The notes beneath the pieces are model-generated. The model ran no database searches. It worked only from the letters and a program-made list of their open reading frames with translations, and was not told where the DNA came from. From Parcubacteria group bacterium Gr01-1014_31 (GTDB taxonomy: Bacteria > Patescibacteriota > Patescibacteriia > Buchananbacterales > GWA2-38-13): a DNA stretch of 40,462 bases. Shown here in pieces: positions 1,740 to 33,395 of the stretch (position 1 is its first letter; each line of letters starts with the position of its first letter). The translations under genes were made by a program, and so were the position numbers. The DNA is taken from contig VMFR01000001.1 in the NCBI GenBank assembly GCA_007376135.1, positions 336,554 through 377,015 on the forward strand. Direction: 5' to 3'.

Positions 1740-2260
1740 GCGCACCGATCCCTCGGCGTTCTCCCGGCGGCTATACCCTGGTCGAGCTGCTCGTGTATGT
1801 TGGCATAGCGACGATCGCCATCGTGGTCTTCAGCAGCTTTATGGTGGACGTTTCCAAACAGGCGGCGTACGCGCGCATTCGCCAGGAGGTGCACCATACC
1901 GGCCGAGTGCTGCTGACCCGGATGATCAGCGACATCCGGAACGCCCAATCGGTAACGATCACCAGCCCCAAAGAGCTGCGCCTCGTCACGCCCTCGGGCA
2001 GCGCTATCCGCTACGTTTGGAATGACGACCCGGCGATCCTGCAAGCCGAATTCGATGACGGGTCCGGCAGCGGGACCGTACCGCTCACGAGCAGCGCCGT
2101 GCGCGTCACGCTGCTCGATTTTCAATACCGTTCCGCCAATACGAACGAAATATCGGTTCACCTGCGGGTCGCCCAGGGCAACGAGAGCGCCGCGCCGGAA
2201 CGGCGCGCCGACATCGACATCGCTTCAGCCGGGATCCGGCGGCGGTCGCTGTACCAGTAA
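1736..2260 (+). CDS. Prepilin-type minor pilin, PilW/GspJ-like
   Basis: SPGG|YTLVELLVYVGIATIAIVVF. MISDIRNAQSV and AIRYVW parallel AKEIREADIS and KIRYFL of 18410-19027. Confidence 0.75.
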   Translation: MSAPIPRRSPGGYTLVELLVYVGIATIAIVVFSSFMVDVSKQAAYARIRQEVHHTGRVLLTRMISDIRNAQSVTITSPKELRLVTPSGSAIRYVWNDDPAILQAEFDDGSGSGTVPLTSSAVRVTLLDFQYRSANTNEISVHLRVAQGNESAAPERRADIDIASAGIRRRSLYQ

Positions 2261-2266
2261 CCTGCT

Positions 2267-3610
2267 ATGCCTGCCCTCGCATTCCACCAGCAGCGCGGCG
2301 TGATCACCATGATGGCCCTGATGGTCGTTTCGGTGTTCGCGCTGACCATCATCTTCACGGTGACCGACCTTGCCCTCAACGATTCACGCATGACCGGCTC
2401 GATGACCGCCAGCGGCCAGGCGTTCGCCGGGGCGGAAACCGGGATCGAAGAAGCCCTCTATCGCCTCGCGACGACCCCCGGCGTCGAGCATCTTTCGCTG
2501 ACCCTCGACGGCGGGCACGTGGAGGTGGCGCTCGCCCCCAACCCGGCCGACAGCTTCCAGCGGATCATCACGGCGACCTCCACCGACCCGACCGGCAAGC
2601 GGCGCGTGGTGCGCCTGGTCGTCCAGACCAGCTTTTTCTCCGGGGGTTTCGACTCCGCGGTGCAGACCGGCGGCGGGGGGCTGGAAATGGACAACAATAG
2701 TTGGGTCGACGGGAACGTTTTTTCCAACGGCAGCATTCTGGGCGGCAGCGGCGTCAAGCGGGAGATCCGCGGCAACGTCACGGTCGCCGGCGCGGGAACC
2801 CTGGACAATATCTGGGTACGGCAGCTCAACGGCTCGGGAGCGACCGCGTACGCCCAGACCATCAAGAACGCCGTCATCGACGAGGATGCGTACTACCAAG
2901 ACATCACCGATTCAACGGTAGCGGGAACCGCCCACCCGGGAAGCCCCAACCGGGCGCCGATGCCGCTGGCCATCGACGACGCGGACCTGCAGCTGTGGAA
3001 AAATGAGATCACCGCGCTGGGGCAACCCGCGATCCCGCCATCGGCGCTGACGGATTGCCCGGCGCAAGCGCCCTACGACTCCGGCACCTACTACTGCATC
3101 ACGACGGCGACGACCCTGGGGGGTCGGAAGATCGAGGCTGACGTGTATGTAAAAGGGGATGTGACCTTGACGCTCGACGGCAACCTGTGGATCACGGGAA
3201 AACTGATATTCGGGGACAGCGGCAACGGCGCCCTCCAGGCAGCCCCGTCGCTGGGCGACGGCAGCGCAGTGATCATGACCGACGGCACGATCGATATCAG
3301 CAACAACTATGCTGTCCAGGGATCCGGCAGCCCGAAAAGCTTCGTCCTCCTGGTGACTTCCAGCCCCAATATCGACGTCGAGCCCCCGGCGATCTTTGCC
3401 AGCAACGGCTCGCAGTCGCTCATCCTGGCCGCCCCGCACGGCGAGATCAGGGTCAAGAACGGCGGCGCGGTGAACGCGTCGTTAGCGGAAAAGATACGGC
3501 TGAACCAAAACAGCCACGTCACCTACAACGTCAACCTGGCTTCTTTTTTCGTGCCTGGCGCCAACGGGAACGCCATGGTCATCGTGCCGGACACCTGGGA
3601 GGAACGATAG
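2267..3610 (+). CDS. PilX-like pilus-associated protein with a large Gly/Asn-rich (beta-helix-like) extracellular domain
   Basis: PilX-type N-terminal anchor QQRGVITMMALMVVSVFALTIIF. Repeats GNVFSNGSILGGSGV / GNVTVAGAGTL. The C-terminus ...PDTWEER parallels ...ISWEEV of 19024-20511. Fourth gene of a fimT-pilV-pilW-pilX-like array. Confidence 0.7.
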   Translation: MPALAFHQQRGVITMMALMVVSVFALTIIFTVTDLALNDSRMTGSMTASGQAFAGAETGIEEALYRLATTPGVEHLSLTLDGGHVEVALAPNPADSFQRIITATSTDPTGKRRVVRLVVQTSFFSGGFDSAVQTGGGGLEMDNNSWVDGNVFSNGSILGGSGVKREIRGNVTVAGAGTLDNIWVRQLNGSGATAYAQTIKNAVIDEDAYYQDITDSTVAGTAHPGSPNRAPMPLAIDDADLQLWKNEITALGQPAIPPSALTDCPAQAPYDSGTYYCITTATTLGGRKIEADVYVKGDVTLTLDGNLWITGKLIFGDSGNGALQAAPSLGDGSAVIMTDGTIDISNNYAVQGSGSPKSFVLLVTSSPNIDVEPPAIFASNGSQSLILAAPHGEIRVKNGGAVNASLAEKIRLNQNSHVTYNVNLASFFVPGANGNAMVIVPDTWEER

Positions 3611-3700
3611 CCGACGCTTTTCTTGCGCGGCTCGCATTTCCGGCGGGCTTTTCTTTTTTTTGCGACAAAAAACTATCGGCTACCAGCGACCATCTACCTC

Positions 3701-4693
3701 CTAGTAGCCGACGTACTGGATCTCCTCTTCCAATTGGATGCCGGCCTGGTTTCGGATGCGCGTCTTGATGAACGCGATCAGCTGTGCGACGTCGTCGGCC
3801 GTCGCCTTCTGCTCGGGGTTGATGATGATATTGCCGTGCTGATTTGACAGCTGTGCCCCGCCGATGCGCATCCCCCGCAAGCCGAGCCGTTCGGTCAGGA
3901 AACCGACCGGCAATTTTCTGTACTTGGTCTTGGCGCGAAACTCCTCCTCCGTCGTATCCAGGGCGCGGCACAGCTTCACTTCGTCCAGCTGCGCTGTTTT
4001 CAGGTCGATATTCTTGAAAATGGAACCGATGCTGGGGTCGGGCGGGATGCGCTCGTTGCGTTTCCGCACGATGTCAGCGGCTTCTCGCGCAACCTGCTCG
4101 GCCGGGCGCTTGGCCAGCAGTATCTTCACCGAAAGCACCACGCCGGGTTTAGAACGCAGAACGCTGTACCGGTAAGCGAGTTGCAGGTCGGCGGGACGCA
4201 GTTGGACAACGGCGCCGCCCAGAAAACAGGTGACCTCCTGGCAGAGCTCGCCAAATCCTTTGCCCCATGCGCCCGCATTGCCCCGCACGGCAGCTCCGAC
4301 GGTGCCCGGGATACCGGCCATGAATTCCATGCCCCCCAGTCCTCGGTCGGCGCAGCGCTGCAGAAGCTCCATCGTTTTCAGTCCGCCGCCGCAGGTCACC
4401 GTGGCGCCGTCGATCCGGAACTCGGTATTGCGGTCCAGGATGACCAGCCCCGGGAACCCGGCGTCGGAAATCAGCACGTTGGAGCCCTCGCCCAGCACCA
4501 GTTGGGGCAGCTCGGCGCGGGCGGCCGCCTGCAGCGCCTGCACCATCGCATCGGCCGAGTCGGCGCGGCAGAGGAAGCGCGCAGGACCGCCGATCTTGAA
4601 GGTCGTGTACGGCTTGAGCAGGACGTTTTCCTGTAAACTGGGGATTATCCCTCTGAGAGCGGGTAATGTCGCCATAAATAATCTTTCTTCCAC
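3701..4693 (-). CDS. murB: UDP-N-acetylenolpyruvoylglucosamine reductase
   Basis: KPYTTFKIGGPARFL and LVLGEGSNVLISD (FAD-binding PCMH domain); GSIFKN. Start is GTG at 4693 or ATG at 4675. Confidence 0.9.
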   Translation of the reverse strand: MEERLFMATLPALRGIIPSLQENVLLKPYTTFKIGGPARFLCRADSADAMVQALQAAARAELPQLVLGEGSNVLISDAGFPGLVILDRNTEFRIDGATVTCGGGLKTMELLQRCADRGLGGMEFMAGIPGTVGAAVRGNAGAWGKGFGELCQEVTCFLGGAVVQLRPADLQLAYRYSVLRSKPGVVLSVKILLAKRPAEQVAREAADIVRKRNERIPPDPSIGSIFKNIDLKTAQLDEVKLCRALDTTEEEFRAKTKYRKLPVGFLTERLGLRGMRIGGAQLSNQHGNIIINPEQKATADDVAQLIAFIKTRIRNQAGIQLEEEIQYVGY

Positions 4694-4830
4694 TACCCTA
4701 TCATAATACCGACAGAATGAATATAAAAAATACGCTATCGTTACCGATCATATTATTACGATTCCTTTCCCTCACTACACTTACAAAAAATGCTCTCATG
4801 GAAATCCACAGCACTCACAATTTGAAACAC

Positions 4831-4861
4831 AAAAAAGCCCCTGGGATTTTGGTCCTGGGGC
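4831..4861 (-). terminator. Rho-independent terminator of the zinc-finger mini-gene
   Basis: On the - strand: GCCCCAGGACCAAAATCCCAGGGGC followed by TTTTTTGTGTTT. Confidence 0.65.
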
Positions 4862-4880
4862 TGCGGCTCGGGTTTTCGGC

Positions 4881-5102
4881 TCACCACTTACCGTTTTTCG
4901 CTATCGTGCTAATTACCTCATCGAGCTTTTCTTCTTGGCATTGCCTTGAACAAAAGCGACCGTTGACAGTGCCATCGCGACGATAGCTAACGATGCTTGT
5001 GTCGCCCTTCTTGAGACGCTGACAGCAATGTCCGCATGCAGAAGGCTTTTGCAACACCTCTTCCCCGACCCTGAAAAATAGTCGTCGCACGTCCTTCTTC
5101 AA
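4881..5102 (-). CDS. Small (73 aa) FCS/MYM-type (TRASH-superfamily) zinc-finger protein
   Basis: C-x2-C ... F-C-S-x2-C pattern (CGHCCQRLKKGDTSIVSYRRDGTVNGRFCSRQC). Strong SD AAGGAGGGAGGGAT directly before the TTG start. Its own hairpin plus U-tract terminator at 4831-4861. G/C at about 40 of 73 third positions (hand count), clearly lower than in the neighbouring genes. Confidence 0.6.
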   Translation of the reverse strand: MKKDVRRLFFRVGEEVLQKPSACGHCCQRLKKGDTSIVSYRRDGTVNGRFCSRQCQEEKLDEVISTIAKNGKW

Positions 5103-5175
5103 ATCCCTCCCTCCTTATAAAGAACCATTATTGCTGCGGCGCGACCACAATGGTAGCGGAAAACACGCAACGTAT

Positions 5176-5204
5176 TCTGATAGCATACCCATACGTTTTT
5201 GTCA
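5176..5204 (-). promoter_or_regulatory. Candidate promoter of the zinc-finger mini-gene
   Basis: On the - strand: TTGACA, 17-nt spacer, TATCAG, about 70 nt upstream of the SD. Confidence 0.35.
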
Positions 5205-5229
5205 ATTGGAAAAAGCTTTCCTACTTTTG

Positions 5230-6663
5230 TTATAGGTTCCAGGTTTCACGTTTCATGATAAGGTCGCGCACTTTGTACACGTCGCCGGCACCCATGGTGA
5301 CGACCACGTCGCCGGGCTCCAGGTACGGCGCCAGGTGCTCGGCGGTTTGCTGCAGCGTGCCGGAAGCGCGCGCCGCTTCGTGGACCTCGCTGATGGCCGC
5401 GGCCAGATCGCGAGTCGCGGTCGGGTCAGTGGCTTCGCGAGCCGACGCGAACAGGTCGGCAACCAGCACGCGATTGGCCGGCGCGAACGCTTTCGCGAAC
5501 TGCGGCATCAGCGCGCGCGTCCGTGACGCCAGGTGTGGCTGGAACACCGCCCAGATCTTTTGCTGGGGGTAGCGCTCGCGGATGGCCTCCAGCGTGCGGG
5601 CAACCTCGGTCGGATGATGGCCATAGTCGTCCACGAACGTCACGCCGCCCGCGGTTATGGTTTCTTGGCGGCGGGAAAGTCCCCGGAACGACGACAGGGC
5701 GGAGGAAAACGCCGAAATATCCAACCCCAATTCCAGGCAAACAATAAGCGCGGCGGTGGCATTCAACGCATTATGGCGGCCCAGCAACGGACTGGCAAAC
5801 TCCGCAAGTTTCTTGCCGCCGCGACTGACCGTGAAACGGCTGCCTTCGGGCGTAAGTCGAAAATCGCTGACCGTAAAGTCGGCGTCCGCGCTGCCGCCGT
5901 AGCGAATGACCTGGTCGCCCGACTTCACCGCTTTCACGACGGACGGCCAGTCGGCGCACGCCACCACCGGTCCGCGCGTTTTTTTCACCAGCGCGGCGAA
6001 GGTTTGCTCCATCGTCCGCACGTCGGGGTAGATATCCACGTGCTCCCACTCCAAACTGGTAATGATGGACGCCCATGGGTTGAGGTCCAAAAATTTGGCG
6101 TCGTGGTCGGCCTGGCTCTTGGCGTACTCGTCGCCCTCGACGATAAAAAGCCCGCCGCGACCCCAGTGCGCGCTCGCCCCTAACCCCATGATCGCCGGCG
6201 CGCCCACGAGATAGCCGGGGTCCATGCCCGCCTGCGTCAGTACCCAAGAAAGCAACGCCGTGGTCGTACTTTTACCGTGTACGCCCGTTACCGCCACGGT
6301 CTTTCTCTGCCGCGAGAGAAATCCGCGAACGTCGGAGTCGTTCATCATCAAAATCCCCTGTTCCCTGGCTGCCCGCACTTCGGGATTGGCATCGGTCCAC
6401 GACGCGCCCACCACCACCACGTCGGGTTTCGAAATTAGATTTTTACTGGCAAAACCCTGGCTGACGGCGATACCGGCTTCCCGTAGTTCATTTTCGGTCG
6501 CAAAAAAATCCTCGGTATCTGAACCGCGGACTTTTTTTCCCTGCTCCTGGAGGATGAGCGCAAGGCCTGCCATGGCAACACCTTTGATGCCAATAAAATA
6601 CACGCTCAAGGCTTTCGCCAATGCGTTGTCATTCTTGACATTCCCCTTCTTTTGTGGTATCAT
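5230..6663 (-). CDS. murC: UDP-N-acetylmuramate--L-alanine ligase
   Basis: YFIGIKGVAMAGLALIL (N-terminal Rossmann domain), GVHGKSTTTALLSWVL (Mur ligase P-loop), DDYGHHPTEV. Confidence 0.9.
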   Translation of the reverse strand: MIPQKKGNVKNDNALAKALSVYFIGIKGVAMAGLALILQEQGKKVRGSDTEDFFATENELREAGIAVSQGFASKNLISKPDVVVVGASWTDANPEVRAAREQGILMMNDSDVRGFLSRQRKTVAVTGVHGKSTTTALLSWVLTQAGMDPGYLVGAPAIMGLGASAHWGRGGLFIVEGDEYAKSQADHDAKFLDLNPWASIITSLEWEHVDIYPDVRTMEQTFAALVKKTRGPVVACADWPSVVKAVKSGDQVIRYGGSADADFTVSDFRLTPEGSRFTVSRGGKKLAEFASPLLGRHNALNATAALIVCLELGLDISAFSSALSSFRGLSRRQETITAGGVTFVDDYGHHPTEVARTLEAIRERYPQQKIWAVFQPHLASRTRALMPQFAKAFAPANRVLVADLFASAREATDPTATRDLAAAISEVHEAARASGTLQQTAEHLAPYLEPGDVVVTMGAGDVYKVRDLIMKRETWNL

Positions 6664-13180: not shown

Positions 13181-14929
<1,749 letters not shown>

Positions 14930-15040: not shown

Positions 15041-16162
15041 ATGGAGGGTTTACGAGCGGCCGCTGTTGAGCCGTCAAAACCAAGAAATCCATTTTCCCTC
15101 ATCGCCAAGCTGCGGGGGAAATTTGCGCGTATACCGGTTGCGCAAAAGCTCTTCCTGGTGCAGCAGCTCTCCATCATGGTCAAGACCGGGATCTCGCTGG
15201 CCGTGGCCCTAAAAACCATCGCCGAGCAGACCGGCAACAAGACCCTGAAAGTGGTGCTGTCCGACGTCCAGCACGAGGTGGAGCGCGGCAACACGTTCGC
15301 CAAGGGTCTGGAACGCCACCGCGCCGTCTTTGGCGACCTGTTCATCAGCATGATCGCGGGCGGCGAGGCCTCGGGCAAACTGGAGGAGGTGCTTAACCAG
15401 CTTTTCATCCAGCTCAAGCGCGACCACGCGCTGGTCGCCAAGGTGCGCGGCGCCATGATCTACCCGGCCGTTATCATCGTCGCCATGATCGGGGTCGCCA
15501 TCCTGACGATGATCTTCGTCATCCCGAACCTTTTGACCATCTTCGAAGAAGTGGACGTGCCGCTGCCGCTGGCGACGCGCATCCTCATCGGCATCAGCAA
15601 CGGCCTCACCTCCTACGGGATATTCGTCGTCCTCGGGCTGGCGCTCCTAATCACGGTCTTCGTTCGGATCGTGCACCTGCCCGGCGGGCGCTACGCGTAT
15701 CATTGGCTGCTGCTGCGCCTGCCGGTTGCCGGCGTCATCATCCGCAAGATCAACATCGCCCGCTTCTGCCGCACGTTCTCCTCGCTGCTGAAGACCGATA
15801 TCGCCATCATCCGCAGCTTCGAGATCACCGCCGACGTCGTCGGGAACGAACTCTACCGGCGGCTGCTGCGCGAGGCCAAGGAAAAGGTGAAGCGCGGCCT
15901 CAACATCAAGGAATCGCTGACGTCCGATATGCAGCTGTTCCCGCCGGTGGTCCTCCAGATGGTCGCGGTCGGCGAGGAGACCGGCGCGCTGGACAACGTG
16001 CTGGAGGAATCGGCGCAGTTCTACGAGAACGACGTCGACCAGACCATGACCACCCTGCCGTCGCTGATCGAGCCCATCCTGATCGTGGTGCTGGGCCTGG
16101 GCGTGGCCGGCATGGCCATGGCCGTCATTATGCCAATGTACTCCATCAGCCAGAACATCTAA
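15041..16162 (+). CDS. pilC: Type IV pilus platform protein PilC/GspF, full length
   Basis: Two GspF repeats (FISMIAGGEASGKLEEVLNQL and VLQMVAVGEETGALDNVLEESAQFY) with 3 TM segments. The stop is immediately followed by the next ATG at 16163. Confidence 0.9.
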   Translation: MEGLRAAAVEPSKPRNPFSLIAKLRGKFARIPVAQKLFLVQQLSIMVKTGISLAVALKTIAEQTGNKTLKVVLSDVQHEVERGNTFAKGLERHRAVFGDLFISMIAGGEASGKLEEVLNQLFIQLKRDHALVAKVRGAMIYPAVIIVAMIGVAILTMIFVIPNLLTIFEEVDVPLPLATRILIGISNGLTSYGIFVVLGLALLITVFVRIVHLPGGRYAYHWLLLRLPVAGVIIRKINIARFCRTFSSLLKTDIAIIRSFEITADVVGNELYRRLLREAKEKVKRGLNIKESLTSDMQLFPPVVLQMVAVGEETGALDNVLEESAQFYENDVDQTMTTLPSLIEPILIVVLGLGVAGMAMAVIMPMYSISQNI

Positions 16163-18406
16163 ATGGAAATTTCGAAATTCGAAATTCGAAATTCGAAATT
16201 TCCGGTGGGTTACACCCTCCTGGAAACCATCCTAGCGATCGCCATCATCGGCACGCTGGTGGTCGGCGTGCTGTCCGTGTTCAATTACGCCCTGGCAGTC
16301 ATCGCCGAAACAAAGGCGCGCACCGGAGCCATCACCCTGGTGGAACAGCAGCTGGAGATGGTGCGCAATCTCCCCTATGACGCCATCGGAACGGTCGGCG
16401 GCATCCCGGCGGGAACCCTGCCGCAAACCGAGACCCTGAACCTCAACAACATCAACTACACGATCGCCATCCAAGCCGTCTACTTCGACGACCCGTTCGA
16501 CGGAACGGTGGGCGGGACGCCCAACGACCTGCTGGGCAACGACTATAAAAAGGTCCGTGTCGCGGCGACCTGGAAAGGACGGTTCTCGGAAAAAACGTAC
16601 GTCGGGCTCACCGTCGTTGCCCCCAAGGGCGTCGAGACGAACGCCGGGGGCGGCACGCTGTCCATCCTGGTGTTCGATGCGGGCGGCGCGCCGGTACCCC
16701 AGGCGGACGTAACGGTCGTCAACAGCCTGGTCAACCCGCCGGTCAACCTCGCCGTGCAAACCGACGCGACGGGCCGCTACCTGCTGCCGGGGGCGCCCGC
16801 CTCGGTGAACGGCTACCAAGTCACCGCGACCAAGGCCGGTTTCAGTACGGACAAAACCTGCACGACCGACCCGGCAGGCGCGGGCTGCAGCGGCGCCATC
16901 GGCAACCCGACGCCGACCAAACCGCACGCCACCGTCATCGCGGGGCAACTGACCGATATCAGTTTCGCCATCGACCGGCTTTCCACCATGGTCGTACAGA
17001 CCATCCGCCAACCCACCCCCGGCGACTGGGTCATCAACACGGGCGGCAACGGTTTTGACCAAGACAACCCGTCGATTGCCCTGTGCCCGAACGGCAACTA
17101 TCTGTTCGTCTGGCGCGATGCCCGGCAGAACAACAACCCGCGCATCTACGCCCAGCAGTACACACCCGCCAAAACGCCGGTCTGGAACCCCGATCTGGCC
17201 ATTACCACGTCCAACAACCAGAACAACCCGGACGTACAGCCGGATGCCAGCTGCAACATCTACTACGCGTGGCAGGATGACCGGAATGGCAACCAGGATA
17301 TCTATTTTGACAAATATACGTCCGGCGGCACGGACGCCTGGACCGACGCCAAAAAGGTGGATGTGGTTGCGCAGAGCGCCGACCAGACCTACCCGCAGGT
17401 CGTCGTCAACGCCAGCTCGACGTACGAATACATCGTCTGGCAGGACGCAGCGGCGGACCTCGGCGACATCTACGCCCAAAAATTTGACACCGACGGCAAC
17501 CCGGTGTGGGGCAGCGAAGTCAGGATCAACTCCGACGTCGGCGCGGCCGCACAATCCCTGCCGGTCGTTGCGTTGGACCTGGACGAGAACCTGCTGTTCC
17601 TGTGGCACGACAACCGGGACGGCCACAACGATATTTTCAGCCAAAAATTCTCCAAGGACGGCGTTCGCCTGTGGTCGCCGGACAAAAAGATGAATACCGA
17701 CGGTGGCACGACCGAACAGATCAGCCCGGCCTTCACACTTGATGCCAGCGGCGTGTTCTACGCGGCGTGGGAGGACAGCCGCAACGGGGACAGCGACATC
17801 TTCGCCCAGCGATATGACGCCAACGGGGTCCCCCAGTGGGCGCAAGACGTGCGCGTCAATACCGACACCGGCACGGCCAACCAGGGCGACCCCTCCATTG
17901 CGCTCTCGGGCAGCGGGACGCTGGTGATCGTCTGGGAGGACCACCGCAGCGGCACCAACGACGTCTACCTACAGCAGCTGGATAGCAACGGCACCAAACT
18001 GATCCCCTTCGACACGCGGGTGAACAACTCGACGAATGGCGAGCAGGAGAATCCCGAAGTGACCCTGAATGCCAGCGGCAAGATCGTCGTGGTCTGGCAG
18101 GACAACACGGACGGCAATTTCGACATCCGCGCCGCCATCTACGACGAGGATCCCCAGACCATTACGCCGGTCGCGAATGTGCCGTTCACGCTCCGGGGAG
18201 CCAAGCGCATCGGGGAAAACCCGGTCATCAACAAATACGTGCAAACGCACACCACCGACGGCAGCGGTATAATCACCATTTCCGACCTGGAATGGGACAA
18301 TTACACGCTGGTGCCAACGGGGTATACCCTGCAGCGCTCCGAACCCGTGCAGCCGGCAGCGCTGAACCCCAACACCACACTGACAGTCATCCTCAATCTG
18401 GAGTAG
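16163..18406 (+). CDS. Giant (747 aa) PilV-like prepilin fused to beta-sandwich domains and a predicted 7-bladed PD40/TolB-like beta-propeller
   Basis: MEISKFEIRNSKFPVG|YTLLETILAIAIIGTLVVGVL. CarboxypepD_reg-like segment TLSILVFDAGGAPVPQADVTVVN...TDATGRYLLPG. Seven ~55-aa repeats with the pattern W.D.R.G..DIY.Q.Y (aa ~298-662). Confidence 0.8.
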   Translation: MEISKFEIRNSKFPVGYTLLETILAIAIIGTLVVGVLSVFNYALAVIAETKARTGAITLVEQQLEMVRNLPYDAIGTVGGIPAGTLPQTETLNLNNINYTIAIQAVYFDDPFDGTVGGTPNDLLGNDYKKVRVAATWKGRFSEKTYVGLTVVAPKGVETNAGGGTLSILVFDAGGAPVPQADVTVVNSLVNPPVNLAVQTDATGRYLLPGAPASVNGYQVTATKAGFSTDKTCTTDPAGAGCSGAIGNPTPTKPHATVIAGQLTDISFAIDRLSTMVVQTIRQPTPGDWVINTGGNGFDQDNPSIALCPNGNYLFVWRDARQNNNPRIYAQQYTPAKTPVWNPDLAITTSNNQNNPDVQPDASCNIYYAWQDDRNGNQDIYFDKYTSGGTDAWTDAKKVDVVAQSADQTYPQVVVNASSTYEYIVWQDAAADLGDIYAQKFDTDGNPVWGSEVRINSDVGAAAQSLPVVALDLDENLLFLWHDNRDGHNDIFSQKFSKDGVRLWSPDKKMNTDGGTTEQISPAFTLDASGVFYAAWEDSRNGDSDIFAQRYDANGVPQWAQDVRVNTDTGTANQGDPSIALSGSGTLVIVWEDHRSGTNDVYLQQLDSNGTKLIPFDTRVNNSTNGEQENPEVTLNASGKIVVVWQDNTDGNFDIRAAIYDEDPQTITPVANVPFTLRGAKRIGENPVINKYVQTHTTDGSGIITISDLEWDNYTLVPTGYTLQRSEPVQPAALNPNTTLTVILNLE
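16166..16202 (+). repeat. Tandem heptanucleotide repeat GAAATT(T)C x5 in codons 2-13 of the giant pilin gene; also a 12-nt-arm inverted repeat
   Basis: GAAATTTC GAAATTC GAAATTC GAAATTC GAAATTTC. Inverted-repeat arms GGAAATTTCGAA (16165-16176) and TTCGAAATTTCC (16192-16203). An AT-rich island in GC-rich DNA. Confidence 0.9.
17054..18148 (+). repeat. Seven tandem ~55-codon propeller-blade repeats inside the CDS 16163-18406
   Basis: LFVWRDARQNNNPRIYAQQY / YYAWQDDRNGNQDIYFDKY / YIVWQDAAADLGDIYAQKF / LFLWHDNRDGHNDIFSQKF / YAAWEDSRNGDSDIFAQRY / VIVWEDHRSGTNDVYLQQL / VVVWQDNTDGNFDIRAAIY. Confidence 0.75.
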
Positions 18407-18409
18407 CCT

Positions 18410-19027
18410 ATGCCCCGCCTTCCCCGCCGCGCCCCCGCCGGATTGACCATCCTTGAGATCGTCATTGCCATCGCGATCTTCACGACCGCGACCCTGATCA
18501 TCGCCGGCTACATCGTCCAGGGCTACCGCGTCAACCGGTTTGCGATGGAGCAAGCCGACGCGCTCGAACACGCGCGCCGCGCCATCGACAGTATGGCCAA
18601 AGAGATCCGCGAAGCCGACATTTCCGACCTCGGCAGTTTTCCCATCGCCTCGGCGACCAACCAAAGCTTTTCTTTCTACAGCAATCTGGACGGCGACAGC
18701 GCAGTGGAAAAGATCCGCTATTTCCTGGAAGGCACCGATTTTAAAAAGGGGGTCATTGAACCGGGCGGCAACCCGCTGGCCTATAACCCTGCCGGCGAAA
18801 AGATCACCATCATTTCCCGCTACGTGCGCAACGGAGCCGACCCCATCTTCAACTATTACGACGGCAACTACCCCAGCTCCACCGCTCCCTTGGCGGCGCC
18901 GGCCAACCCCAACCAGGTAAAACTTATCCAACTCAGCTTGCGGGTCAATATCGACCCGAGTACCGCCCCGGACGACCTGACCCTGAACACGTTCGTGCAG
19001 ATACGGAATTTGAAAGACAACTTATGA
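18410..19027 (+). CDS. Prepilin-type minor pilin, PilW/GspJ-like
   Basis: RRAPAG|LTILEIVIAIAIFTTATLIIAGYIV. SD CTGGAGTAGCCT before the ATG. The stop overlaps the next start (ATGA at 19024-19027). Paralogue of 1736-2260. Confidence 0.75.
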   Translation: MPRLPRRAPAGLTILEIVIAIAIFTTATLIIAGYIVQGYRVNRFAMEQADALEHARRAIDSMAKEIREADISDLGSFPIASATNQSFSFYSNLDGDSAVEKIRYFLEGTDFKKGVIEPGGNPLAYNPAGEKITIISRYVRNGADPIFNYYDGNYPSSTAPLAAPANPNQVKLIQLSLRVNIDPSTAPDDLTLNTFVQIRNLKDNL

Positions 19028-20511
19028 TATTTCGAAATATCAAAATATCGAACTATCGAGATATTAGGGATGGTTCGATCCTGGTATCGACCCTGGTGTT
19101 TTCTTTCATCTTCCTGATGATCGCGGGCGGCCTGCTCGGGTTTGTCAGCCAGCAACGCAAACTGTCCCTATCGCGGCAGGCGCAACTGTCGGCGCTCATG
19201 ATCGCCGAGGCCGGCGTTAACTACTACCGCTGGCACCTCGCACATACCCCCAACGACTATGCCGATGGCAGCGGACAGACCGGCTGCAACCCGTGTGGAC
19301 CGTACGTGCACAACTTCACCGACCCTTCCGGCACGGTCTTGGGCAGCTATAGCCTGCTCATCACTCCCCCGCCCCAAGGTTCCACCATCGTCAAAATAAA
19401 ATCGTCGGGTTCCAGTATCGCCAATCCGTCGTTGCAACGGCATGTCGTGGCCCGCTACGGCCGTCCATCGCTGGCGGCCTACGCCGTTGTGGCCGACGCC
19501 AACCTGCGATTCGGCGTGGGCACGACGGTCCATGGCCCCTTGCACTCCAACTATGGCATCCGCTTCGACGGGTTGGCCTACAATGTCGTCTCAAGCTATC
19601 AAAATACCTACACCGACACCGATTCGGACGCCTGCACCGCCAATTCGTGGGGAGTGCACACCTGCGTCAGCCCCGCCGACCCGTCCCCGAATACGCCGGC
19701 GCAAACGCGGCTGGACGTATTCGCAGCCGGCCGGCAGTATCCCGTACCCCAGGTGGACTTCAACGCCATCACGGTCAACCTGGACCAGCTGCAGGACCTG
19801 GGTAACGCCGCGGACGGTTCCTACTTTAACCCGTCCAACCAGCAGGGCTGGCACATCCAGTTCCTGGGCAACGGCACCTATCGCTACCGCAAGGTCAAAA
19901 CCACCCGCACCTGCACCTACGGCGACCCGGAGGTGACGGTGGCGGTCGGCGACGTGTACGCCTATCAGGGCAACTGGGCAACGACCGCGTTGCCCGCGAA
20001 TGGTATAATCTTTGTGGAGGACAACGCCTGGGTGGACGGCACGCTGCAGAGCGGCGAACGCATCACGCTGGTCGCTGCCAAGGAACCGCTCGCGTCCGGC
20101 AACGCGACCATCTGGGTCAATAACGACATCCTCTACACCGTGCAGGACGGCACGGCAGCACTCGGCTTGATCGCCCAGAAAGACATTTCGGTCGGGCTGT
20201 TCAGCGAGGACAATCTGGAGATCAATGCGGCGCTGCTGGCACAAACCGGACGCGTGGGACGCCCGTACTACCCTTCCGCCTGCAGCCCATCGTACTACCT
20301 GCGCGACACCATCACCGTCTACGGGTCCATCGCCACGAAGCAACGGTACGGCTTTGCGTGGGTCTGCGGCGGCGCGCCCTGCTCAGGCTACGGCGTCCGT
20401 AACCTCAATTTTGACGGCACCATGACCTACACGCCGCCGCCGTCATTCCCCACGTCGGGCGAATACCGGTTCATTTCCTGGGAAGAAGTACTCAGCAACG
20501 AAATTTACTGA
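19024..20511 (+). CDS. PilX-like pilus-associated protein with a large extracellular domain
   Basis: N-terminal anchor GSILVSTLVFSFIFLMIAGGLLGFV followed by LMIAEAGVNYYRWHL (compare AGAETGIEEALYRL in 2267-3610). C-terminal ISWEEV motif shared with DTWEER of the paralogue. Confidence 0.7.
   Translation: MIFRNIKISNYRDIRDGSILVSTLVFSFIFLMIAGGLLGFVSQQRKLSLSRQAQLSALMIAEAGVNYYRWHLAHTPNDYADGSGQTGCNPCGPYVHNFTDPSGTVLGSYSLLITPPPQGSTIVKIKSSGSSIANPSLQRHVVARYGRPSLAAYAVVADANLRFGVGTTVHGPLHSNYGIRFDGLAYNVVSSYQNTYTDTDSDACTANSWGVHTCVSPADPSPNTPAQTRLDVFAAGRQYPVPQVDFNAITVNLDQLQDLGNAADGSYFNPSNQQGWHIQFLGNGTYRYRKVKTTRTCTYGDPEVTVAVGDVYAYQGNWATTALPANGIIFVEDNAWVDGTLQSGERITLVAAKEPLASGNATIWVNNDILYTVQDGTAALGLIAQKDISVGLFSEDNLEINAALLAQTGRVGRPYYPSACSPSYYLRDTITVYGSIATKQRYGFAWVCGGAPCSGYGVRNLNFDGTMTYTPPPSFPTSGEYRFISWEEVLSNEIY
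19026..19041. repeat. Perfect 16-bp palindrome GATATTTCGAAATATC in codons 1-6 of the PilX-like gene
   Basis: Self-complementary by inspection. Shares the 10-bp core ATTTCGAAAT with 16168-16177 at the 5' end of the giant pilin gene. Further half-site-like copies ATATCGAA and ATCGAGATAT follow. Confidence 0.85.
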
Positions 20512-20523: not shown

Positions 20524-21687
20524 TTGGACAATGACAAGGAAAGTTCTTATCTCGAAATTCTTCGGCGTGAACCGCGCCGTTACTCGACCGTCCTTACTAC
20601 TCACATTGTCCTACCGGGCATGTTGACCATTCCGGAGCAAAATCTGTTCGGGCTCGATATCAGCCAATCCAAACTTCGGCTGGTGCAGATCCGCACCAAA
20701 CACCGCCGCAAAATGATCACCGCGCTGCGGGAATTGCGGCTGCCGAACGGCATCATTGTCGACGGTGAGATCGCCGACCCCAAACAGCTGTCCCAGATGG
20801 TCGCGACCATCTACCGCGGCAAAGAACTGCGCGACCGCATCGCGGGGAATGGCGTTATTTCCGTTTTGCCCGAGAGCAAAACCTTCATGAAACTCATCAC
20901 CCTGCCGACCTCGGAGGCGGCGCAGGTCGAGACCCTGCTGCGGGACGAGATCCCGCGCCACATTCCCCTGCCCCTCGAAGAGATCTACTACGACTGGCAG
21001 CCGCTGCCGAACGGCGCGGATGGCAAAACGCACGTGCTGCTGGGAGTGGCGCCCAAACACCTGGTCGACGGATATCTCGCCGTGTTGCGTGCCGCCGGAT
21101 TGCTGCCCTTCGCCCTGGAGATAGAAGCGGCGCCGATCGCCCGCTGCCTGCTGAAGGACGCCGCAGCCGACGACCAGACCGTCACGGTCATCATCGATAT
21201 GGGCGCCGCCCGAACCGGCTTGATGGTGGCGCGGTCGGGCGTCATCCAATTCACCGTCAGTCTGCCGGTCTCCGGCGACCGCATCACGCACACGATCTCC
21301 GAAACGCTCAAGATCAGCGGCCAAGAGGCCGAGGAGGCCAAGATCGTCTGCGGTCTGGACTCGGAACGCTGCCAGGGAGCGTTGAAAAAAGTGCTCTACG
21401 CCACCTTCGATGACCTGGTAAAAAAGATCGAATCGTCGCTTGATTTCTACCGCGATAACTTCGCCGATGCCAAACCGGTCGGCGATATCCTGCTCACCGG
21501 CGGCGGCGCGAATTTTCTGAACGTCGACCAGATCCTGGCCGAGCGTTTGCAGCTGCCCGTCCACATCGGCAATCCGCTGACCAACGTGCAGCTGGCCAAG
21601 GCGTCAGTACCGGCGACCACGCTCCAATCGTACGCCACGGCCATCGGTCTGGCGCTGCGCAGTACACACCGCGAAGCCGTCATCTAG
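20524..21687 (+). CDS. pilM: Type IV pilus assembly protein PilM (actin-like ATPase fold)
   Basis: FGLDISQSKLRLVQI, ...LLTGGGANFLNVDQILAERLQLPVHIGNPL. The TTG at 20524 is uncertain; ATG at 20620 (MLTIPEQNLFGLDIS) is the more likely start. Confidence 0.85.
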   Translation: MDNDKESSYLEILRREPRRYSTVLTTHIVLPGMLTIPEQNLFGLDISQSKLRLVQIRTKHRRKMITALRELRLPNGIIVDGEIADPKQLSQMVATIYRGKELRDRIAGNGVISVLPESKTFMKLITLPTSEAAQVETLLRDEIPRHIPLPLEEIYYDWQPLPNGADGKTHVLLGVAPKHLVDGYLAVLRAAGLLPFALEIEAAPIARCLLKDAAADDQTVTVIIDMGAARTGLMVARSGVIQFTVSLPVSGDRITHTISETLKISGQEAEEAKIVCGLDSERCQGALKKVLYATFDDLVKKIESSLDFYRDNFADAKPVGDILLTGGGANFLNVDQILAERLQLPVHIGNPLTNVQLAKASVPATTLQSYATAIGLALRSTHREAVI

Positions 21688-21692: not shown

Positions 21693-22250
21693 ATGCCGAA
21701 CGTTACCCTCAATCTCATCCCGGCCAGGGACAAGCAGGAGCTGAGATTGGTCAACCTGTTTTTAGCGATCAAAAATCTCGTGTCGTTGGCGCTCATCGGC
21801 ATGATCGCGCTGGCCGCCGGATTGATCGCCGCCAAGGGATTCCTCCAAAGCTATTTCAATCATCTGGTCGCCTCCAACACGCTCACCCGGGAAGCCGGCC
21901 GGTATGCGAATAATGACCTGCGAACCTTCCGCACCGAGCTGGCCGCCGTACAGCAAGTGCAGCAGGAATACATCCCGTTCAGCGAACTGCTCCTGCAGTT
22001 GGGGGCCCATATCCCGCCCGGCGTGACCCTCACGGATTTCAGCGTGGACAAGACGGGCGCGGCGGAGTTGTCCGGCATCGCGGCGCGTCGCGACGACCTG
22101 TTGGCGCTCCATGACCGCCTGGTCAGATCGGGTTTTGCCGATGAATTCATCATCCCGCTGACCACCAAGTTCCAGGAGGATAACATCAAGTTTCGCTTGT
22201 CCCTGAAACTGCGGGTGCCGCGCATCATCATCACCGAACATGTCGATTAA
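21693..22250 (+). CDS. pilN: PilN-like fimbrial assembly protein
   Basis: N-terminal LNLIPARDKQELR, then a single TM helix (LVSLALIGMIALAAGLIAA) and a periplasmic-type domain. Directly follows pilM. Confidence 0.75.
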   Translation: MPNVTLNLIPARDKQELRLVNLFLAIKNLVSLALIGMIALAAGLIAAKGFLQSYFNHLVASNTLTREAGRYANNDLRTFRTELAAVQQVQQEYIPFSELLLQLGAHIPPGVTLTDFSVDKTGAAELSGIAARRDDLLALHDRLVRSGFADEFIIPLTTKFQEDNIKFRLSLKLRVPRIIITEHVD

Positions 22251-22869
22251 ACGAAAGATCTACCTCACCATCGGATCGGTCGTCATTGCCCTGGCGGCCA
22301 TGGGGTATTTCCTGGTCTGGCCGACCCTGCGCGAGATCACGACCATCACCCAGGCGATCCAGCGCGAGCAGGAAGATCTCGAGCTAAAATACCAGCGCGG
22401 GCAGCGCATCCGCAAGATCGCGTCGGAATACAAGAAGATCAAACCCCAACGCGACCGGCTTAACACTATTTTCGTGCCCAGCGGCGATGAGCTGCAATTC
22501 ATCATGACGCTGGAACGCTTGGAACGCCAGTACCAGGTCGAGGTCGTGCCGACGCCCGACCAAAGCTCCAATGCGCTCGGCCCGACCGACCCGCTGGCGC
22601 TGACGCTCTCCATCCGCGGGAATTATCCCAAGGTGCTGCAGTATCTCATCGCCCTGGAACGGCTGAATTACTACTTCAACGTCGGCAGCCTGTCGATCAC
22701 CGGCGCGAACTCCGATACCGGGGCGTTGACCCTGGTCCTTTCCGGCAGCATCCATCGCAAACCGTACCAGGCCAAGGCCGCCGATGAGCCTGTGGCCGCT
22801 CCTCTCGTTCCGCCCGCCGCAGAAACCCCGACGGCCACGACCGTCCCGTCCACCTTCCCGACCGAATAA
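22240..22869 (+). CDS. pilO: PilO-like pilus assembly protein
   Basis: Single TM helix (IYLTIGSVVIALAAMGYFLVW), coiled-coil-like segment, Pro/Thr-rich tail. Overlaps the pilN stop by 11 nt. The call is mainly positional. Confidence 0.65.
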   Translation: MSIKRKIYLTIGSVVIALAAMGYFLVWPTLREITTITQAIQREQEDLELKYQRGQRIRKIASEYKKIKPQRDRLNTIFVPSGDELQFIMTLERLERQYQVEVVPTPDQSSNALGPTDPLALTLSIRGNYPKVLQYLIALERLNYYFNVGSLSITGANSDTGALTLVLSGSIHRKPYQAKAADEPVAAPLVPPAAETPTATTVPSTFPTE

Positions 22870-22883: not shown

Positions 22884-23216
22884 ATGAAACTCAATTTCAA
22901 ACTCACTCTCCGTCGCGCAGCTGCGCCGCACAAACGTAAGCGCCGCATCGCGCTGCCGCCGCAAGCGCTCTACCTGACCGCCATCATTCTGCTGGCGCTG
23001 GGCATCGGCGGCGGGATCCTCGGGATCTATCGCGTCGTGGATAAAACCCTCACCGCCTCCGAAGAGGTGCTTCGCCTCCGCCAGGAAGTCTCCGAAGAAT
23101 CGTTCCGGACCGATGACTTTCTCACCGCGGTGGAGAGCCTGGAAAAAAAGACAGCGCAGCCGGAGCCGCCGGACTGGTCGGCAATCGTCAACCCATTCCT
23201 CGCCAACCGCCCATAA
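22884..23216 (+). CDS. Hypothetical single-pass membrane protein, last gene of the pilus operon
   Basis: Basic N-terminus, TM helix LYLTAIILLALGIGGGILGIY, charged helical tail. G/C-rich third positions. A strong terminator follows. Confidence 0.6.
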   Translation: MKLNFKLTLRRAAAPHKRKRRIALPPQALYLTAIILLALGIGGGILGIYRVVDKTLTASEEVLRLRQEVSEESFRTDDFLTAVESLEKKTAQPEPPDWSAIVNPFLANRP

Positions 23217-29753: not shown

Positions 29754-30488
29754 TTATGCGTCCGGCTTTTCGGCTGCCCGATTTGCCGCCAATACCCCCG
29801 CCTGCAGCAGGCTGGCGAAGGACTCGCCGCCGTCACCCCACCACCCTTTCAGGACCTCGTAGGTCATCGTCCCTTGCTTGACGTAGAAATTATTGACGTC
29901 GGTGATCTCCAGCTCGCCCCGCGCCGAAGGCTTCAACTGCTTCACGGCATCCCAGACCTGCCCGTCAAAGCAGTACAGGCCGATGACCGCCAGGTTGGAC
30001 TTGGGCTGGGCTGGCTTCTCCTCGATGCTGACGATCTTTTCACCCGAGACCTCCGCCACGCCGAACGAGCGCGGATTATCGACTTCTTTGAGGAAGATCT
30101 TTGCCCCGCGCTTTTGGCTCCGGAAATCTTTAATGGCCGGGCTGATATCGTCGTACAAAATGTTGTCGCCCAGGATGACGGCGACCGGGCCGCGGTCCGC
30201 AAAATCCTCGCACAGGGCGAGCGCCTGCGCGATGCCGCCGGCCTGGTCTTGCACGCCGTAGGAAAATTTCGCCCCGAACTGCGCGCCTGACTGCAGCAGC
30301 TCCAAAAAGCCGCCGGCGTGCCCCTTGCCCGACACGATCATGATGTCGGTGATGCCGGCCTGCGTCAGCGTCTGGATCGGGTAGTAGATCATCGGCCGGT
30401 CGTAGACGGGCAGCAGGTGCTTGTTGGTCACCAAGGTCAGCGGGCGCAGGCGCGTCCCGGTGCCGCCGGCGAGGATGATGCCTTTCAT
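29754..30488 (-). CDS. rmlA: Glucose-1-phosphate thymidylyltransferase-like nucleotidyltransferase
   Basis: MKGIILAGGTGTRLRPLTLVTNKHLLPVYDRPMIYYPI. The true ATG is at 30488 (internal to the listed ORF). Sits beside rmlD and rmlB. Confidence 0.85.
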   Translation of the reverse strand: MKGIILAGGTGTRLRPLTLVTNKHLLPVYDRPMIYYPIQTLTQAGITDIMIVSGKGHAGGFLELLQSGAQFGAKFSYGVQDQAGGIAQALALCEDFADRGPVAVILGDNILYDDISPAIKDFRSQKRGAKIFLKEVDNPRSFGVAEVSGEKIVSIEEKPAQPKSNLAVIGLYCFDGQVWDAVKQLKPSARGELEITDVNNFYVKQGTMTYEVLKGWWGDGGESFASLLQAGVLAANRAAEKPDA

Positions 30489-30498
30489 AGCGTAATAA

Positions 30499-31383
30499 TT
30501 ATTGGCCTGGATGCACTTCGCGCAGGTAGTCCGCCAGCGCTTCGCGCCAGGACCGCAACGGCAATTCCTTAGTATTGACCAGCAAACTATGCACCGGCCG
30601 CATGGCTTTTTGCGGAAATTCAGCGGAACTACAGGCTTCAAGCTCCGTATCTAATCCTAGCAGCTTCATGATTTCCTTACCAAACTCATACCACGTGATG
30701 CCCGTGGTCGGTGTGTCATTGGTCAGGTGGTGAATTCCCTCCTCATCATCACCGGCGACCATCAGCGCAACGGTTTTTGTTGCCAGATCGGCCGCGTACG
30801 TGGGTTTGCCCCAGCGGTCGTTGACCAGTTTCAGTTTCCCATCCCGCTTGGCGCGCGTGATTATCTTTTCCACCACGTTGTCGCGGCGCCCCGGACCGAA
30901 CAGCCACGACGTTCGGATGAGCAGATAACGGCAGCTGCTTTGTCGCAGCAACCGCTCCCCCTCCAACTTGCTTTTCCCGTACACGGATAAAGGGTTTGGG
31001 ACGGCGTTCTCCGCGTACCCGGCCGGATCGGCCCCGTCGAAAACGTAGTCCGTGCTGTAGTGCACCAATGCGGCGCCGATATCGCGGCACGTCTGCGCCA
31101 GCACGCCAACTGCCTCGGCGTTGATGGCGTACGCGATCGGTGCGTTCTCCTCGCATCCGTCAACGTCGGTATACGCGGCCGCATTGATAACGTAGCGCGG
31201 AGTGATGCCCTTTAGTCGACGGACCACGTGGTCATGGTCAGTCAGGTCGAATTCCGGCAGGTCCAGCGTACACACCGGTAAACCTTGGCTCTGCAGGACC
31301 GCCACCAACTCGCGCCCCAGCATCCCCTGGGCGCCGATAATTGCCACCGGCAGAGCGGCGGGGTTGACCTTACCGGTTTTCAT
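30499..31383 (-). CDS. rmlD: dTDP-4-dehydrorhamnose reductase
   Basis: VAIIGAQGMLGRELV (Rossmann fold), YGKSKLEGE (YxxxK). ATG at 31383 overlaps the rmlB 3' end by 14 nt. Confidence 0.85.
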   Translation of the reverse strand: MKTGKVNPAALPVAIIGAQGMLGRELVAVLQSQGLPVCTLDLPEFDLTDHDHVVRRLKGITPRYVINAAAYTDVDGCEENAPIAYAINAEAVGVLAQTCRDIGAALVHYSTDYVFDGADPAGYAENAVPNPLSVYGKSKLEGERLLRQSSCRYLLIRTSWLFGPGRRDNVVEKIITRAKRDGKLKLVNDRWGKPTYAADLATKTVALMVAGDDEEGIHHLTNDTPTTGITWYEFGKEIMKLLGLDTELEACSSAEFPQKAMRPVHSLLVNTKELPLRSWREALADYLREVHPGQ

Positions 31384-32383
31384 ACTGCTCCCGGTAGTAC
31401 CGCTGGTATTCTCCGCTCTTGACGCGCTGCCACCACGCCGTGTTCTCCCGGTACCAGGCAACCGTCTTTGCAAGCCACTCGTCAAAGGAGTGCGCAGGCG
31501 CATACCCCAACTCGCGTTTGGCTTTCGACCAATCAATGGCGTAACGGCGATCATGGCTGGGCCGGTCTTTGACGAACTGCATGGCCGACCCTTCGGCGCC
31601 CAGTAGCGCGATGATCTTTTTGACCACCTCCAGATTGCTGATGTCCTGCGTCAGCCCACCGATACAGTAGGTCTCCCCCGCCTTCCCTTTTTGCAGGATG
31701 AGATCGATGGCGCGGCAATGGTCCTCAACATACAGCCAGTCCCGGACGTACTTGCCGTCGCCGTAGACCGGGACCGGCTTGCCTTCCAGGAGGTTGGTCA
31801 CGGCCAGGGGAATGAGTTTTTCGGGAAATTGGTACGGTCCAAAATTATTGGACGTGTTGGAAATGGTGACCGGCAGCCCGTAGGTCGTCGCGTACGCCCG
31901 CACCAGGTGGTCGGCGGCCGCCTTGGAGGCGGAATAGGGGTTGCGCGGATGGTACGGCGTATCCTCGCGGAACGCTTCGGCGGTGCCCAGCATCAGCTGG
32001 CCAAAGACCTCATCGGTGGAAACATGGTGGAAGCGCTTGACCTTCGCGGCCAGCGCGGCATCCAGCAGCACCTGCGTGCCGACCACGTTGGTCTGCACGA
32101 ACACCGCCGGCCCAAGAATGGAGCGGTCCACATGCGACTCGGCGGCGAAATGAACGACCGCATCCGCGCCCGCCATGGCCTCAGCAATAGCCGCCGCATC
32201 GGTAATGTCGCCTTTGATAAAACGGTAGCGCTTGCCGCCCTCCGCCCCGCGCAGATTCTCCAAATTGCCGGCGTAAGTCAGCGCGTCGAAATTGACGATC
32301 TCGTCCGTCCGGTGTTCGCGCAGCCAGTAGTGAACAAAATTCGACCCGATGAACCCGGCTCCACCCGTCACAAAAATTTTCAT
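31370..32383 (-). CDS. rmlB: dTDP-glucose 4,6-dehydratase
   Basis: MKIFVTGGAGFIGSNFV, YSASKAAADHLVRAY. ATGA overlap with the upstream Nudix gene. Confidence 0.92.
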   Translation of the reverse strand: MKIFVTGGAGFIGSNFVHYWLREHRTDEIVNFDALTYAGNLENLRGAEGGKRYRFIKGDITDAAAIAEAMAGADAVVHFAAESHVDRSILGPAVFVQTNVVGTQVLLDAALAAKVKRFHHVSTDEVFGQLMLGTAEAFREDTPYHPRNPYSASKAAADHLVRAYATTYGLPVTISNTSNNFGPYQFPEKLIPLAVTNLLEGKPVPVYGDGKYVRDWLYVEDHCRAIDLILQKGKAGETYCIGGLTQDISNLEVVKKIIALLGAEGSAMQFVKDRPSHDRRYAIDWSKAKRELGYAPAHSFDEWLAKTVAWYRENTAWWQRVKSGEYQRYYREQYENR

Positions 32384-32934: not shown

Positions 32935-32945
32935 GGGAGGCTCAC

Positions 32946-33391: not shown

Positions 33392-33395
33392 GGAA

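Follow-up and report, generated by a model that had tools for sequence, protein, structure and literature searches.

Modular pilins, as defined by Raynaud et al. in 2021, comprise 1,219 proteins in 264 architectures, among which the association of a pilin with PF13620 (IPR012902-PF13620) ranks third in frequency and accounts for 66 proteins (PMC8179133). In S. sanguinis, the tip complex is made of PilA, which is I-like and plain, PilB, which carries a vWA domain, and PilC, which carries a lectin (PMC9934059), and the modular pilins of this tip are demonstrated adhesins (PMC8179133, PMC9934059). In Nanosynbacter lyticus TM7x (Saccharibacteria), the minor pilin PilX2 carries a heptabladed RCC1 propeller and has no predicted PilD signal; Grossman et al. 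reported that it contributes to host binding and competition and that its deletion halves host binding (PMC11623550). Structurally, PilX2 resembles PLL-type lectins and carbohydrate-active enzymes, and its authors compared it with PilY1 as a tip adhesin (PMC11623550). PilY1 docks on the K-type pilin, to which its last ~10 residues are added as a beta-strand (PMC13533445). Here, we describe a gene for a 747-amino acid (aa) minor pilin fused to a predicted seven-bladed beta-propeller, located at 16163-18406 of a 40,462-nucleotide (nt) stretch of DNA from Parcubacteria group bacterium Gr01-1014_31 (contig VMFR01000001.1, positions 336,554 to 377,015; hereafter the window, whose numbering is used throughout). 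We favor a reading, which we hold to be fairly probable, in which this protein is a modular I-type minor pilin that co-assembles with J- and K-type pilins into a tip complex and presents the propeller as a binding head.

A Minor Pilin Carrying a Seven-Bladed Propeller

The open reading frame (ORF) starts with ATG and lies on the forward strand. Its product consists of five parts, i.e., a prepilin-type leader, a pilin helix with its beta-sheet, a CarboxypepD_reg sandwich, seven blades, and a SpaA-like sandwich, which are delimited as follows:

16163..16210, + strand: leader peptide MEISKFEIRNSKFPVG, aa 1-16; Gly at -1, at least 90% conserved; coded by a 7-base pair (bp) tandem repeat
16211..16642, + strand: pilin module, aa 17-160; hydrophobic helix with Glu at +5, alpha1 of ~50 residues, beta-sheet head, I-type profiles
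16643..17017, + strand: CarboxypepD_reg-like beta-sandwich, aa 161-285; PF13620 and strands 163-282
17018..18148, + strand: seven-bladed beta-propeller, aa 286-662; repeats, model strands, Foldseek, and BNR_4/beta_prop_Msarc/SBBP matches
18149..18406, + strand: C-terminal prealbumin/SpaA-like beta-sandwich, aa 663-747, and stop codon; PF17802 and strands 674-746

The 747-aa protein is a type IV pilin by its signal, by its helix-plus-sheet fold, and by its neighborhood of assembly genes. Its N-terminus, MEISKFEIRNSKFPVG followed by YTLLETILAIAIIGTLVVG, fits the class III signal that an earlier note on this DNA had read there (G16/YTLLE, with Glu at +5 and a hydrophobic run), the pattern being G-[FY..]-[ST]-[LT]-[LIVP]-E plus 14 hydrophobic residues. 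In an alignment of 65 homologues, the start consensus is GFTLIE, and G16 and E21 are both at least 90% conserved; TIGR02532 matches 39 of these family members, and a regular expression finds G-x4-E in 52. A precomputed N_methyl match is also present on many of the 281 relatives that were retrieved by word-indexed search.

On the pilin module of the 65 members, matches to I-type profiles far outnumber those to profiles of the H, J, or major-pilin kind. Indeed, ComGE matches 58 of them, PilV 43, and GspI 22, while the figures for other types are 21 for ComGF, seven for GspJ, and two for GspH; the 747-aa protein itself has weak ComGE and GspI matches at its N-terminal helix (NCBIfam). These sub-threshold profiles, and the place of the gene before J- and K-type genes, suggest that it encodes an I-type (ComGE/PilV/GspI) subunit, in agreement with the PilV position previously proposed for the fusion, which is itself conserved. 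A PDB sequence search with the pilin head alone returned at best an unrelated protein (E-value 0.16), and a search with the family profile matched a pilin N-terminus only. The head also contains an acidic motif, DDPFDG...DYKK (aa 109-130, 16487-16552), in which D110, D113, D127, Y128, and K129 are invariant across the 65 homologues; the motif may bind a metal or contact the partner pilins.

Downstream of the pilin module, PF13620 (CarboxypepD_reg) matches aa 166-232 with an E-value of 1.5e-8, above its gathering score, and this sandwich probably serves as a stalk or spacer. It is followed by seven blades of ~55 aa with a mean pairwise identity of 30% and the consensus Q..P...L.aSg....vW.D.R.G..DIyaQ.yd..G...W, whose anchoring Trp residues (317, 370, 426, 481, 536, 591, and 645) are spaced by 53-56 aa. 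PF17802 (SpaA) then matches aa 659-724, also above its gathering score (E-value 5e-5). The carboxypeptidase-regulatory-like sandwich, the seven W.D.R.G..DI(Y/F).Q repeats, and the second C-terminal sandwich of the earlier note are thus all found again, while its description of the propeller as "PD40/TolB-type" was only loosely right. Indeed, PD40 (PF07676) does not match the protein at E<=0.1; TolB (NF002183) does so weakly, with an E-value of 0.0065 that is far under the cut-off, and the TolB families match only 8/65 and 3/65 members. What matches instead is BNR_4 (PF15892; E-value 1.7e-10, 41.2 bits versus a cut-off of 27.3, covering profile positions 3-165 of 272), together with the NCBIfam beta_prop_Msarc and SBBP/LipL53 repeats, the beta_prop_Msarc repeat being detected, below its cut-off, in all 65 members. 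The 747-aa protein has no Pfam RCC1 match and none to PF05567 (PilY1/PilC) at E<=0.1. With PF13620, BNR_4, and PF17802 above their gathering cut-offs and three separate extra domains in the structural model, it is a modular pilin.

The AlphaFold2 model, built on the 65 homologues, has a mean predicted local distance difference test score (pLDDT) of 90 and a predicted template modeling score (pTM) of 0.74, the pLDDT being 81-93 for the pilin module and >90 for the propeller. It comprises a helix at 19-68 (50 residues), a sheet head at 89-152, a sandwich at 163-282, then, at 287-660, seven blades with three to four strands each, and lastly a sandwich at 674-746. Compared with the PDB by Foldseek, this model matched propellers only. 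The best target-normalized template modeling score (TM-score) is that of the lectin CV39L (0.71), followed by those of GH145 and PL42 enzymes (0.63-0.70), and PilY1 is absent from the best 50 matches. We take these CV39L, GH145, and PL42 entries to be seven-bladed propellers, and CV39L to be a lectin of the PLL family.

Conservation of the Fusion and Its Variants

Among the 281 relatives, ~90 are full-length, with about 730-760 aa and 33-89% identity, and their named sources are Patescibacteria, Parcubacteria, and Falkowbacteria; the full-length architecture is also found in ~45 cluster representatives (50%-identity clusters). In a genome scan covering one genome per species, with a query made from 12 close sequences, continuous tblastn matches over aa 16-747, with identities down to 35%, are confined to Patescibacteria-type contigs. 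Four loci (L008, L010, L011, and L017) are labeled "uncultured Gammaproteobacteria bacterium" yet carry a Patescibacteria-type operon with mraY synteny, and these labels are probably wrong. Along the 747-aa gene, the GC content is even. We examined 19 loci from 18 contigs (L002 and L015 share one contig), which come from independent assemblies (NCBI, JGI, ENA, and Logan). The trio formed by the big pilin, a GspJ-like pilin of ~205 aa, and a pilin of ~480 aa is intact in 19/19, and none of these loci has a plain I-type pilin beside a separate propeller gene.

The amount of propeller is variable. By tblastn, in orthologues of 454, 597, and 733 aa the match over aa 16-287 passes straight into the C-terminal sandwich and the propeller is missing, while orthologues of ~1,081 and ~1,400 aa have ~320 and ~660 extra residues in the propeller region, i.e., roughly one and two more propeller-lengths. 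The big-pilin variants lie at the following positions of their loci:

L089, 2131-5376
L017, about 1310-5500
L004, 8001-9365
L087, 3189-5390
L088, 3591-5384

In one more variant (P0078), a Laminin_G_3 lectin domain is found between the pilin and the sandwich. Since it is between the two sandwiches that the amount of propeller varies, the carrier is the pilin with both sandwiches and the propeller an insert of variable length, as would be expected of an effector that can be exchanged while its carrier is conserved. Diversifying selection on the propeller head was considered and dropped, as domain-wise conservation reveals no hypervariable propeller.

The blade itself is not restricted to pilins. 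The family profile matches 83,060 cluster representatives (12,256 with E<=1e-30), largely via the propeller, and the W.D.R.G..DIY.Q blade occurs in thousands of non-pilin proteins, the giants among them reaching ~7,900 aa without a pilin N-terminus. Examples of such non-pilin proteins are P0121, P0127, P0141, P0180, and P0201; the giants have 4,000-7,900 aa and up to 25 matched stretches. Propeller-only matches (loci L018-L085) come from Bacteroidota, Planctomycetota, WOR-3, Eisenbacteria, and several archaeal groups, the archaeal hosts including Thermoplasmata, Methanoculleus, and Helarchaeota. This blade is poorly covered by dedicated curated families.

The Pilus Operon and the Partner Pilins

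In the window, mraY, on the reverse strand, is followed by pilB, pilC, the 747-aa gene, the 205-aa pilin gene, the 495-aa protein gene, pilM, pilN, a pilO-like gene, and a 110-aa gene:

13181-14929, + strand: PilB-type assembly ATPase; T2SSE, E-value 1.3e-130
15041-16162, + strand: PilC platform protein; T2SSF, E-value 5.3e-51
18410..19027, + strand: 205-aa minor pilin, GspJ/PilW-like; class III signal APAG/LTILE; best profile gspJ, E-value 3e-4
19024..20511, + strand: 495-aa minor pilin in the PilX/GspK position; RDG/SILVS, no Glu5; ComZ-like fold
20524-21687, + strand: PilM; operon member
21693-22250, + strand: PilN; operon member
22240-22869, + strand: PilO-like gene; operon member
22884-23216, + strand: 110-aa membrane protein; one predicted membrane helix; kept at that position in relatives, with 31-88% identity; assigned to no family

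The pilC stop codon abuts the start codon of the 747-aa pilin, and the spacing around the three pilin genes is successively 0 nt, 3 nt, and a 4-nt overlap. The 747-, 205-, and 495-aa products follow the I-J-K gene order. The PilW-like and then PilX-like genes announced downstream of the fusion in the earlier note are both there, with a GspJ profile on the 205-aa product and a 495-aa product that reads Gly17/SILVS, without Glu5. K-type cap subunits have been reported without Glu5 (PMC9934059), and the 495-aa K-type pilin is predicted to cap the tip complex. Its model (pLDDT 90, pTM 0.82) has ComZ of Thermus thermophilus (6qvi) as the best structural match, with an E-value of 1.8e-12, and ice-binding proteins come next. 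The 495-aa family, with >2,146 homologues, some annotated PF14341 PilX_N, is far larger than that of the propeller-pilin.

Wherever the contig reaches far enough, the full order, with mraY followed by pilB-pilC-trio-pilMNO, is found, and a rearrangement of the genes around it, as in L004 and L087, leaves the trio unbroken. The statement that no pilY1-like gene is present also stands, PilY1/PilC-type Pfam domains being absent from the scanned ORFs of the window, and the window contains no peptidase A24 gene.

A second pilus gene set, at 36-3610, begins with the 3' part of a pilC and comprises:

679-1143: 154-aa ComGD/GspH-like pilin
1140-1739: 199-aa PilV-like pilin
1736-2260: 174-aa pilin
2267-3610: 447-aa K-like protein

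The 199-aa pilin had been taken for a short paralogue of the 747-aa protein. Their helices are indeed alike (26% identity over 72 aa), and no likeness is seen elsewhere; more generally, the pilins of the second set resemble those of the main set in their N-terminal helices only. A recent duplication of the main trio was rejected as the origin of this cluster, the likeness being restricted to the helices. The organism may make two distinct pili, a situation also reported for TM7x. Elsewhere in the window, a 738-aa ORF with a TTG start (37045-39261) has no Pfam match; the genes around it (29754-40438) are those of glycosyltransferases and of the dTDP-rhamnose pathway.

Repeats in the Leader-Coding Regions

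Directly after the ATG of the 747-aa gene, GAAATTC is repeated 4.9 times (16166-16200) and codes most of the leader. The leader-coding part of the 495-aa gene contains TCGAAATA, repeated 4.1 times (19032-19064); this repeat is perfect in the closest relative (x4.2) and is found in two more relatives. The 8-bp leader repeats of the relatives are located as follows:

L005, 10503-10536
L007, 6372-6402
L008, 8901-8926

Both leader repeats are AT-rich, and the GAAATTC tract sits in a genome of 61% GC. Neither the 7-bp nor the 8-bp period is a multiple of three, so that the gain or loss of a GAAATTC unit would shift the frame of the 747-aa gene. A palindrome, ATTTCGAAAT, is also found 3-6 nt after the ATG in both genes, and the window has 12 copies of its core TCGAAAT versus 4.7 expected, seven of them at the starts of these two genes. 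In an 89%-identical relative, two unrelated 7-bp repeats (CATGAAA and TGTTCCA) occupy the same place in the big-pilin gene, and in close relatives the corresponding places contain repeats with a period of 7, 8, or 14, in part unrelated in sequence. The repeats and the palindrome could serve in phase variation, as a slippage tract, or be an operator or a translation element. An RNA hairpin that starts from the G of the AUG of the 747-aa gene reaches -24.2 kcal/mol (z -4.8 in the window); a conserved RNA structure at the pilin start was rejected, as orthologous regions give z about -1.

A Predicted Role at the Pilus Tip

What is observed directly is how the protein is divided into domains, that the fusion is conserved, which operon surrounds it, and the I-J-K succession of the genes; the favored reading would build on these observations in four steps. 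The prepilin peptidase would cleave the 747-aa prepilin after Gly16. The Glu5-bearing alpha1 would then assemble in the membrane with the GspJ-like 205-aa and the ComZ-like 495-aa pilins, and the I, J, and K products would form a priming complex that ends at the pilus tip. From this tip, the CarboxypepD_reg sandwich, the propeller, and the SpaA-like sandwich would project on the I-type chain. Finally, the propeller would be the ligand-binding head, its most likely target being a glycan or some other structure on the surface of a host cell or substrate, and the pilus could attach with no need for a distinct protein of the PilY1 type. The most plausible function is that of a tip adhesin, by analogy with PilY1, and we counted toward it the top TM-score of CV39L together with the resemblance of TM7x PilX2 to PLL-type lectins. 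Of the "PilY1 analogue" suggested in the earlier note, the tip-adhesin role is plausible, but homology to PilY1 is not detectable and the attachment is mechanistically different.

Several points weigh against this reading. The leader has an atypical Val at -2, its sole departure from the class III pattern, and the 747-aa protein has no Pfam N_methyl match at E<=0.1; beside this miss, we set the family-wide conservation of G16 and E21 as support. The I-type profile matches all lie below curated cut-offs and mainly within alpha1. Closure of the propeller ring is deduced from the number of blades and the global TM-scores of the model. The domains are about equally conserved (39-46% pairwise identity), and the propeller does not present the accelerated divergence often seen in host-range determinants. 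By E-value, the best Foldseek matches are enzymes (CylK, PL42 lyase, sialidases) and not lectins. Lastly, the case for processing, location at the tip, an adhesin function, and the class of ligand is indirect: for cleavage, tip location, and binding, we reason from what is established for HIJK-type minor pilins and from two systems studied by experiment, S. sanguinis and TM7x PilX2.

The E-value ranking speaks for an alternative in which the propeller is an enzyme, i.e., a glycoside hydrolase or polysaccharide lyase displayed on a pilus or short pseudopilus and directed against host or environmental cell-wall polysaccharide. The top matches are indeed catalytic, since PL42 rhamnose-glucuronate lyase, GH145, and PL24/25 ulvan lyases stand there with CylK and sialidases; faint precomputed GH43 (PF04616) matches exist on some homologues, and modular pilins bearing peptidases have been catalogued (PMC8179133). 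However, the identity to these catalytic propellers is just 10-16%, a single motif is repeated over the seven blades with no blade-specific conserved catalytic constellation evident, the top TM-score belongs to a lectin, and no carbohydrate-active enzyme family is significant for the 747-aa protein. We consider this alternative unlikely.

It is also quite unlikely, in our view, that the operon encodes a competence (DNA-uptake) pilus in which the ComZ-like K subunit would catch DNA and the propeller-bearing I subunit would be a structural primer or spacer rather than a host adhesin. ComZ binds DNA, and the K subunit matches this Thermus protein, which the PDB title calls a competence-associated pilin. 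In the same direction, ComGE is the commonest profile match of the pilin module, PilT is absent from the scanned ORFs of the window, and in one relative (L088) the trio is followed, ~5 kb downstream, by a ComEC-type "Competence" gene. On the other hand, adhesion and DNA uptake are not exclusive, a mere spacer would hardly account for a 590-aa three-domain cargo conserved over a range of at least 33-89% identity, and the propeller-bearing pilus of TM7x did not contribute to competence (PMC11623550).

The protein could, very improbably, stay unpolymerized, the helix being a membrane anchor and the propeller acting at the cell surface, for instance, in envelope maintenance. Minor pilins are scarce and some stay in the membrane, and the operon is always divergent from mraY/murD/ftsW and adjoins the cell-wall (dcw) genes. 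But the Gly-1/Glu5 signal is conserved, the gene is placed between pilC and the J and K minor pilins, and the trio stays joined when the operon is rearranged from the pilB/pilC orientation (L004 and L087). As for a chimera of pilin and propeller genes made by assembly or gene calling, the same fusion in ~90 proteins from independent assemblies and the continuous tblastn matches rule it out for all practical purposes.

Most Patescibacteria outside the Saccharibacteria are uncultured. For such lineages of the candidate phyla radiation (CPR), the I-type minor pilin family with its predicted tip role is a concrete, conserved candidate for a pilus-tip binding head encoded within a core pilus operon. 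Its recombinant aa 161-747 part is tractable for glycan-array or host-cell screens, which could help to predict hosts and guide co-cultivation. We also propose, as a doubtful extension, that the I-type priming pilin is an exchangeable host-recognition head in many uncultured Patescibacteria (Parcubacteria, Falkowbacteria, Buchananbacteria, and relatives), in which the number of propeller-lengths (0, 1, or more) between the two stalk domains would set the host or substrate range and the leader repeats might switch the expression of the tip subunits by slippage.

Comparison with Known Systems

The earlier note did not recognize this architecture as a described family. As a kind, it is already described, in the modular pilins and in TM7x PilX2 (PMC8179133, PMC11623550), while literature searches found no description of this propeller-pilin family. 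Modular pilins and a CPR propeller-pilin adhesin are thus already published and this build is undescribed, so that the conceptual advance is modest. The modular-pilin catalogue lists fusions of pilins to IPR011659, IPR002860, IPR000408, PF13418/PF13415, and IPR013517, and one to IPR008707 (PMC8179133). The present propeller went unrecognized in it because no InterPro signature covers it well, and family members annotated with N_methyl and PF13620 likely fall in its pilin-PF13620 class. We take the identifiers just listed to be, in the same order, those of PD40, BNR, RCC1, Kelch, FG-GAP, and the PilY1 domain.

With modular pilins in general, the 747-aa protein shares a pilin module onto which non-pilin domains are grafted, a predicted location at the tip, and a presumed part in adhesion; it differs by a cargo of three domains (sandwich, propeller, sandwich). 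In S. sanguinis, the cargo is borne by the other two pilins and the I-like PilA is plain, whereas here the cargo is on the putative I-type subunit. TM7x PilX2 is likewise a minor pilin of Patescibacteria with a seven-bladed propeller; as described, it is set apart by its RCC1 repeats and X/K type, compared with SBBP/BNR_4-like blades and an I-type position here. Moreover, PilX2 has no predicted PilD signal and a C-terminal propeller, whereas the 747-aa protein has a Gly-1/Glu5 signal and a propeller placed between two sandwiches. The PilY1/PilC proteins of type IVa pili (Pseudomonas, Neisseria, Myxococcus) also place a large seven-bladed propeller protein on a minor-pilin priming complex. PilY1 is a non-pilin whose propeller is a carrier, while here the propeller is part of the I-type pilin chain and the presumed effector. 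As for the partner, ComZ (6qvi) and the 495-aa product are both large beta-rich minor pilins, with an identity of 14% and a global TM-score of 0.27-0.30. Finally, secreted SBBP/beta_prop_Msarc/BNR_4 proteins have the same blade but no pilin N-terminus. Studied systems place the effector on other pilins or on PilY1, and this family indicates that an I-type priming pilin can carry it. What is distinct here is the SBBP/BNR_4-like propeller, its I-type carrier, the canonical signal, and a three-domain cargo of variable length.

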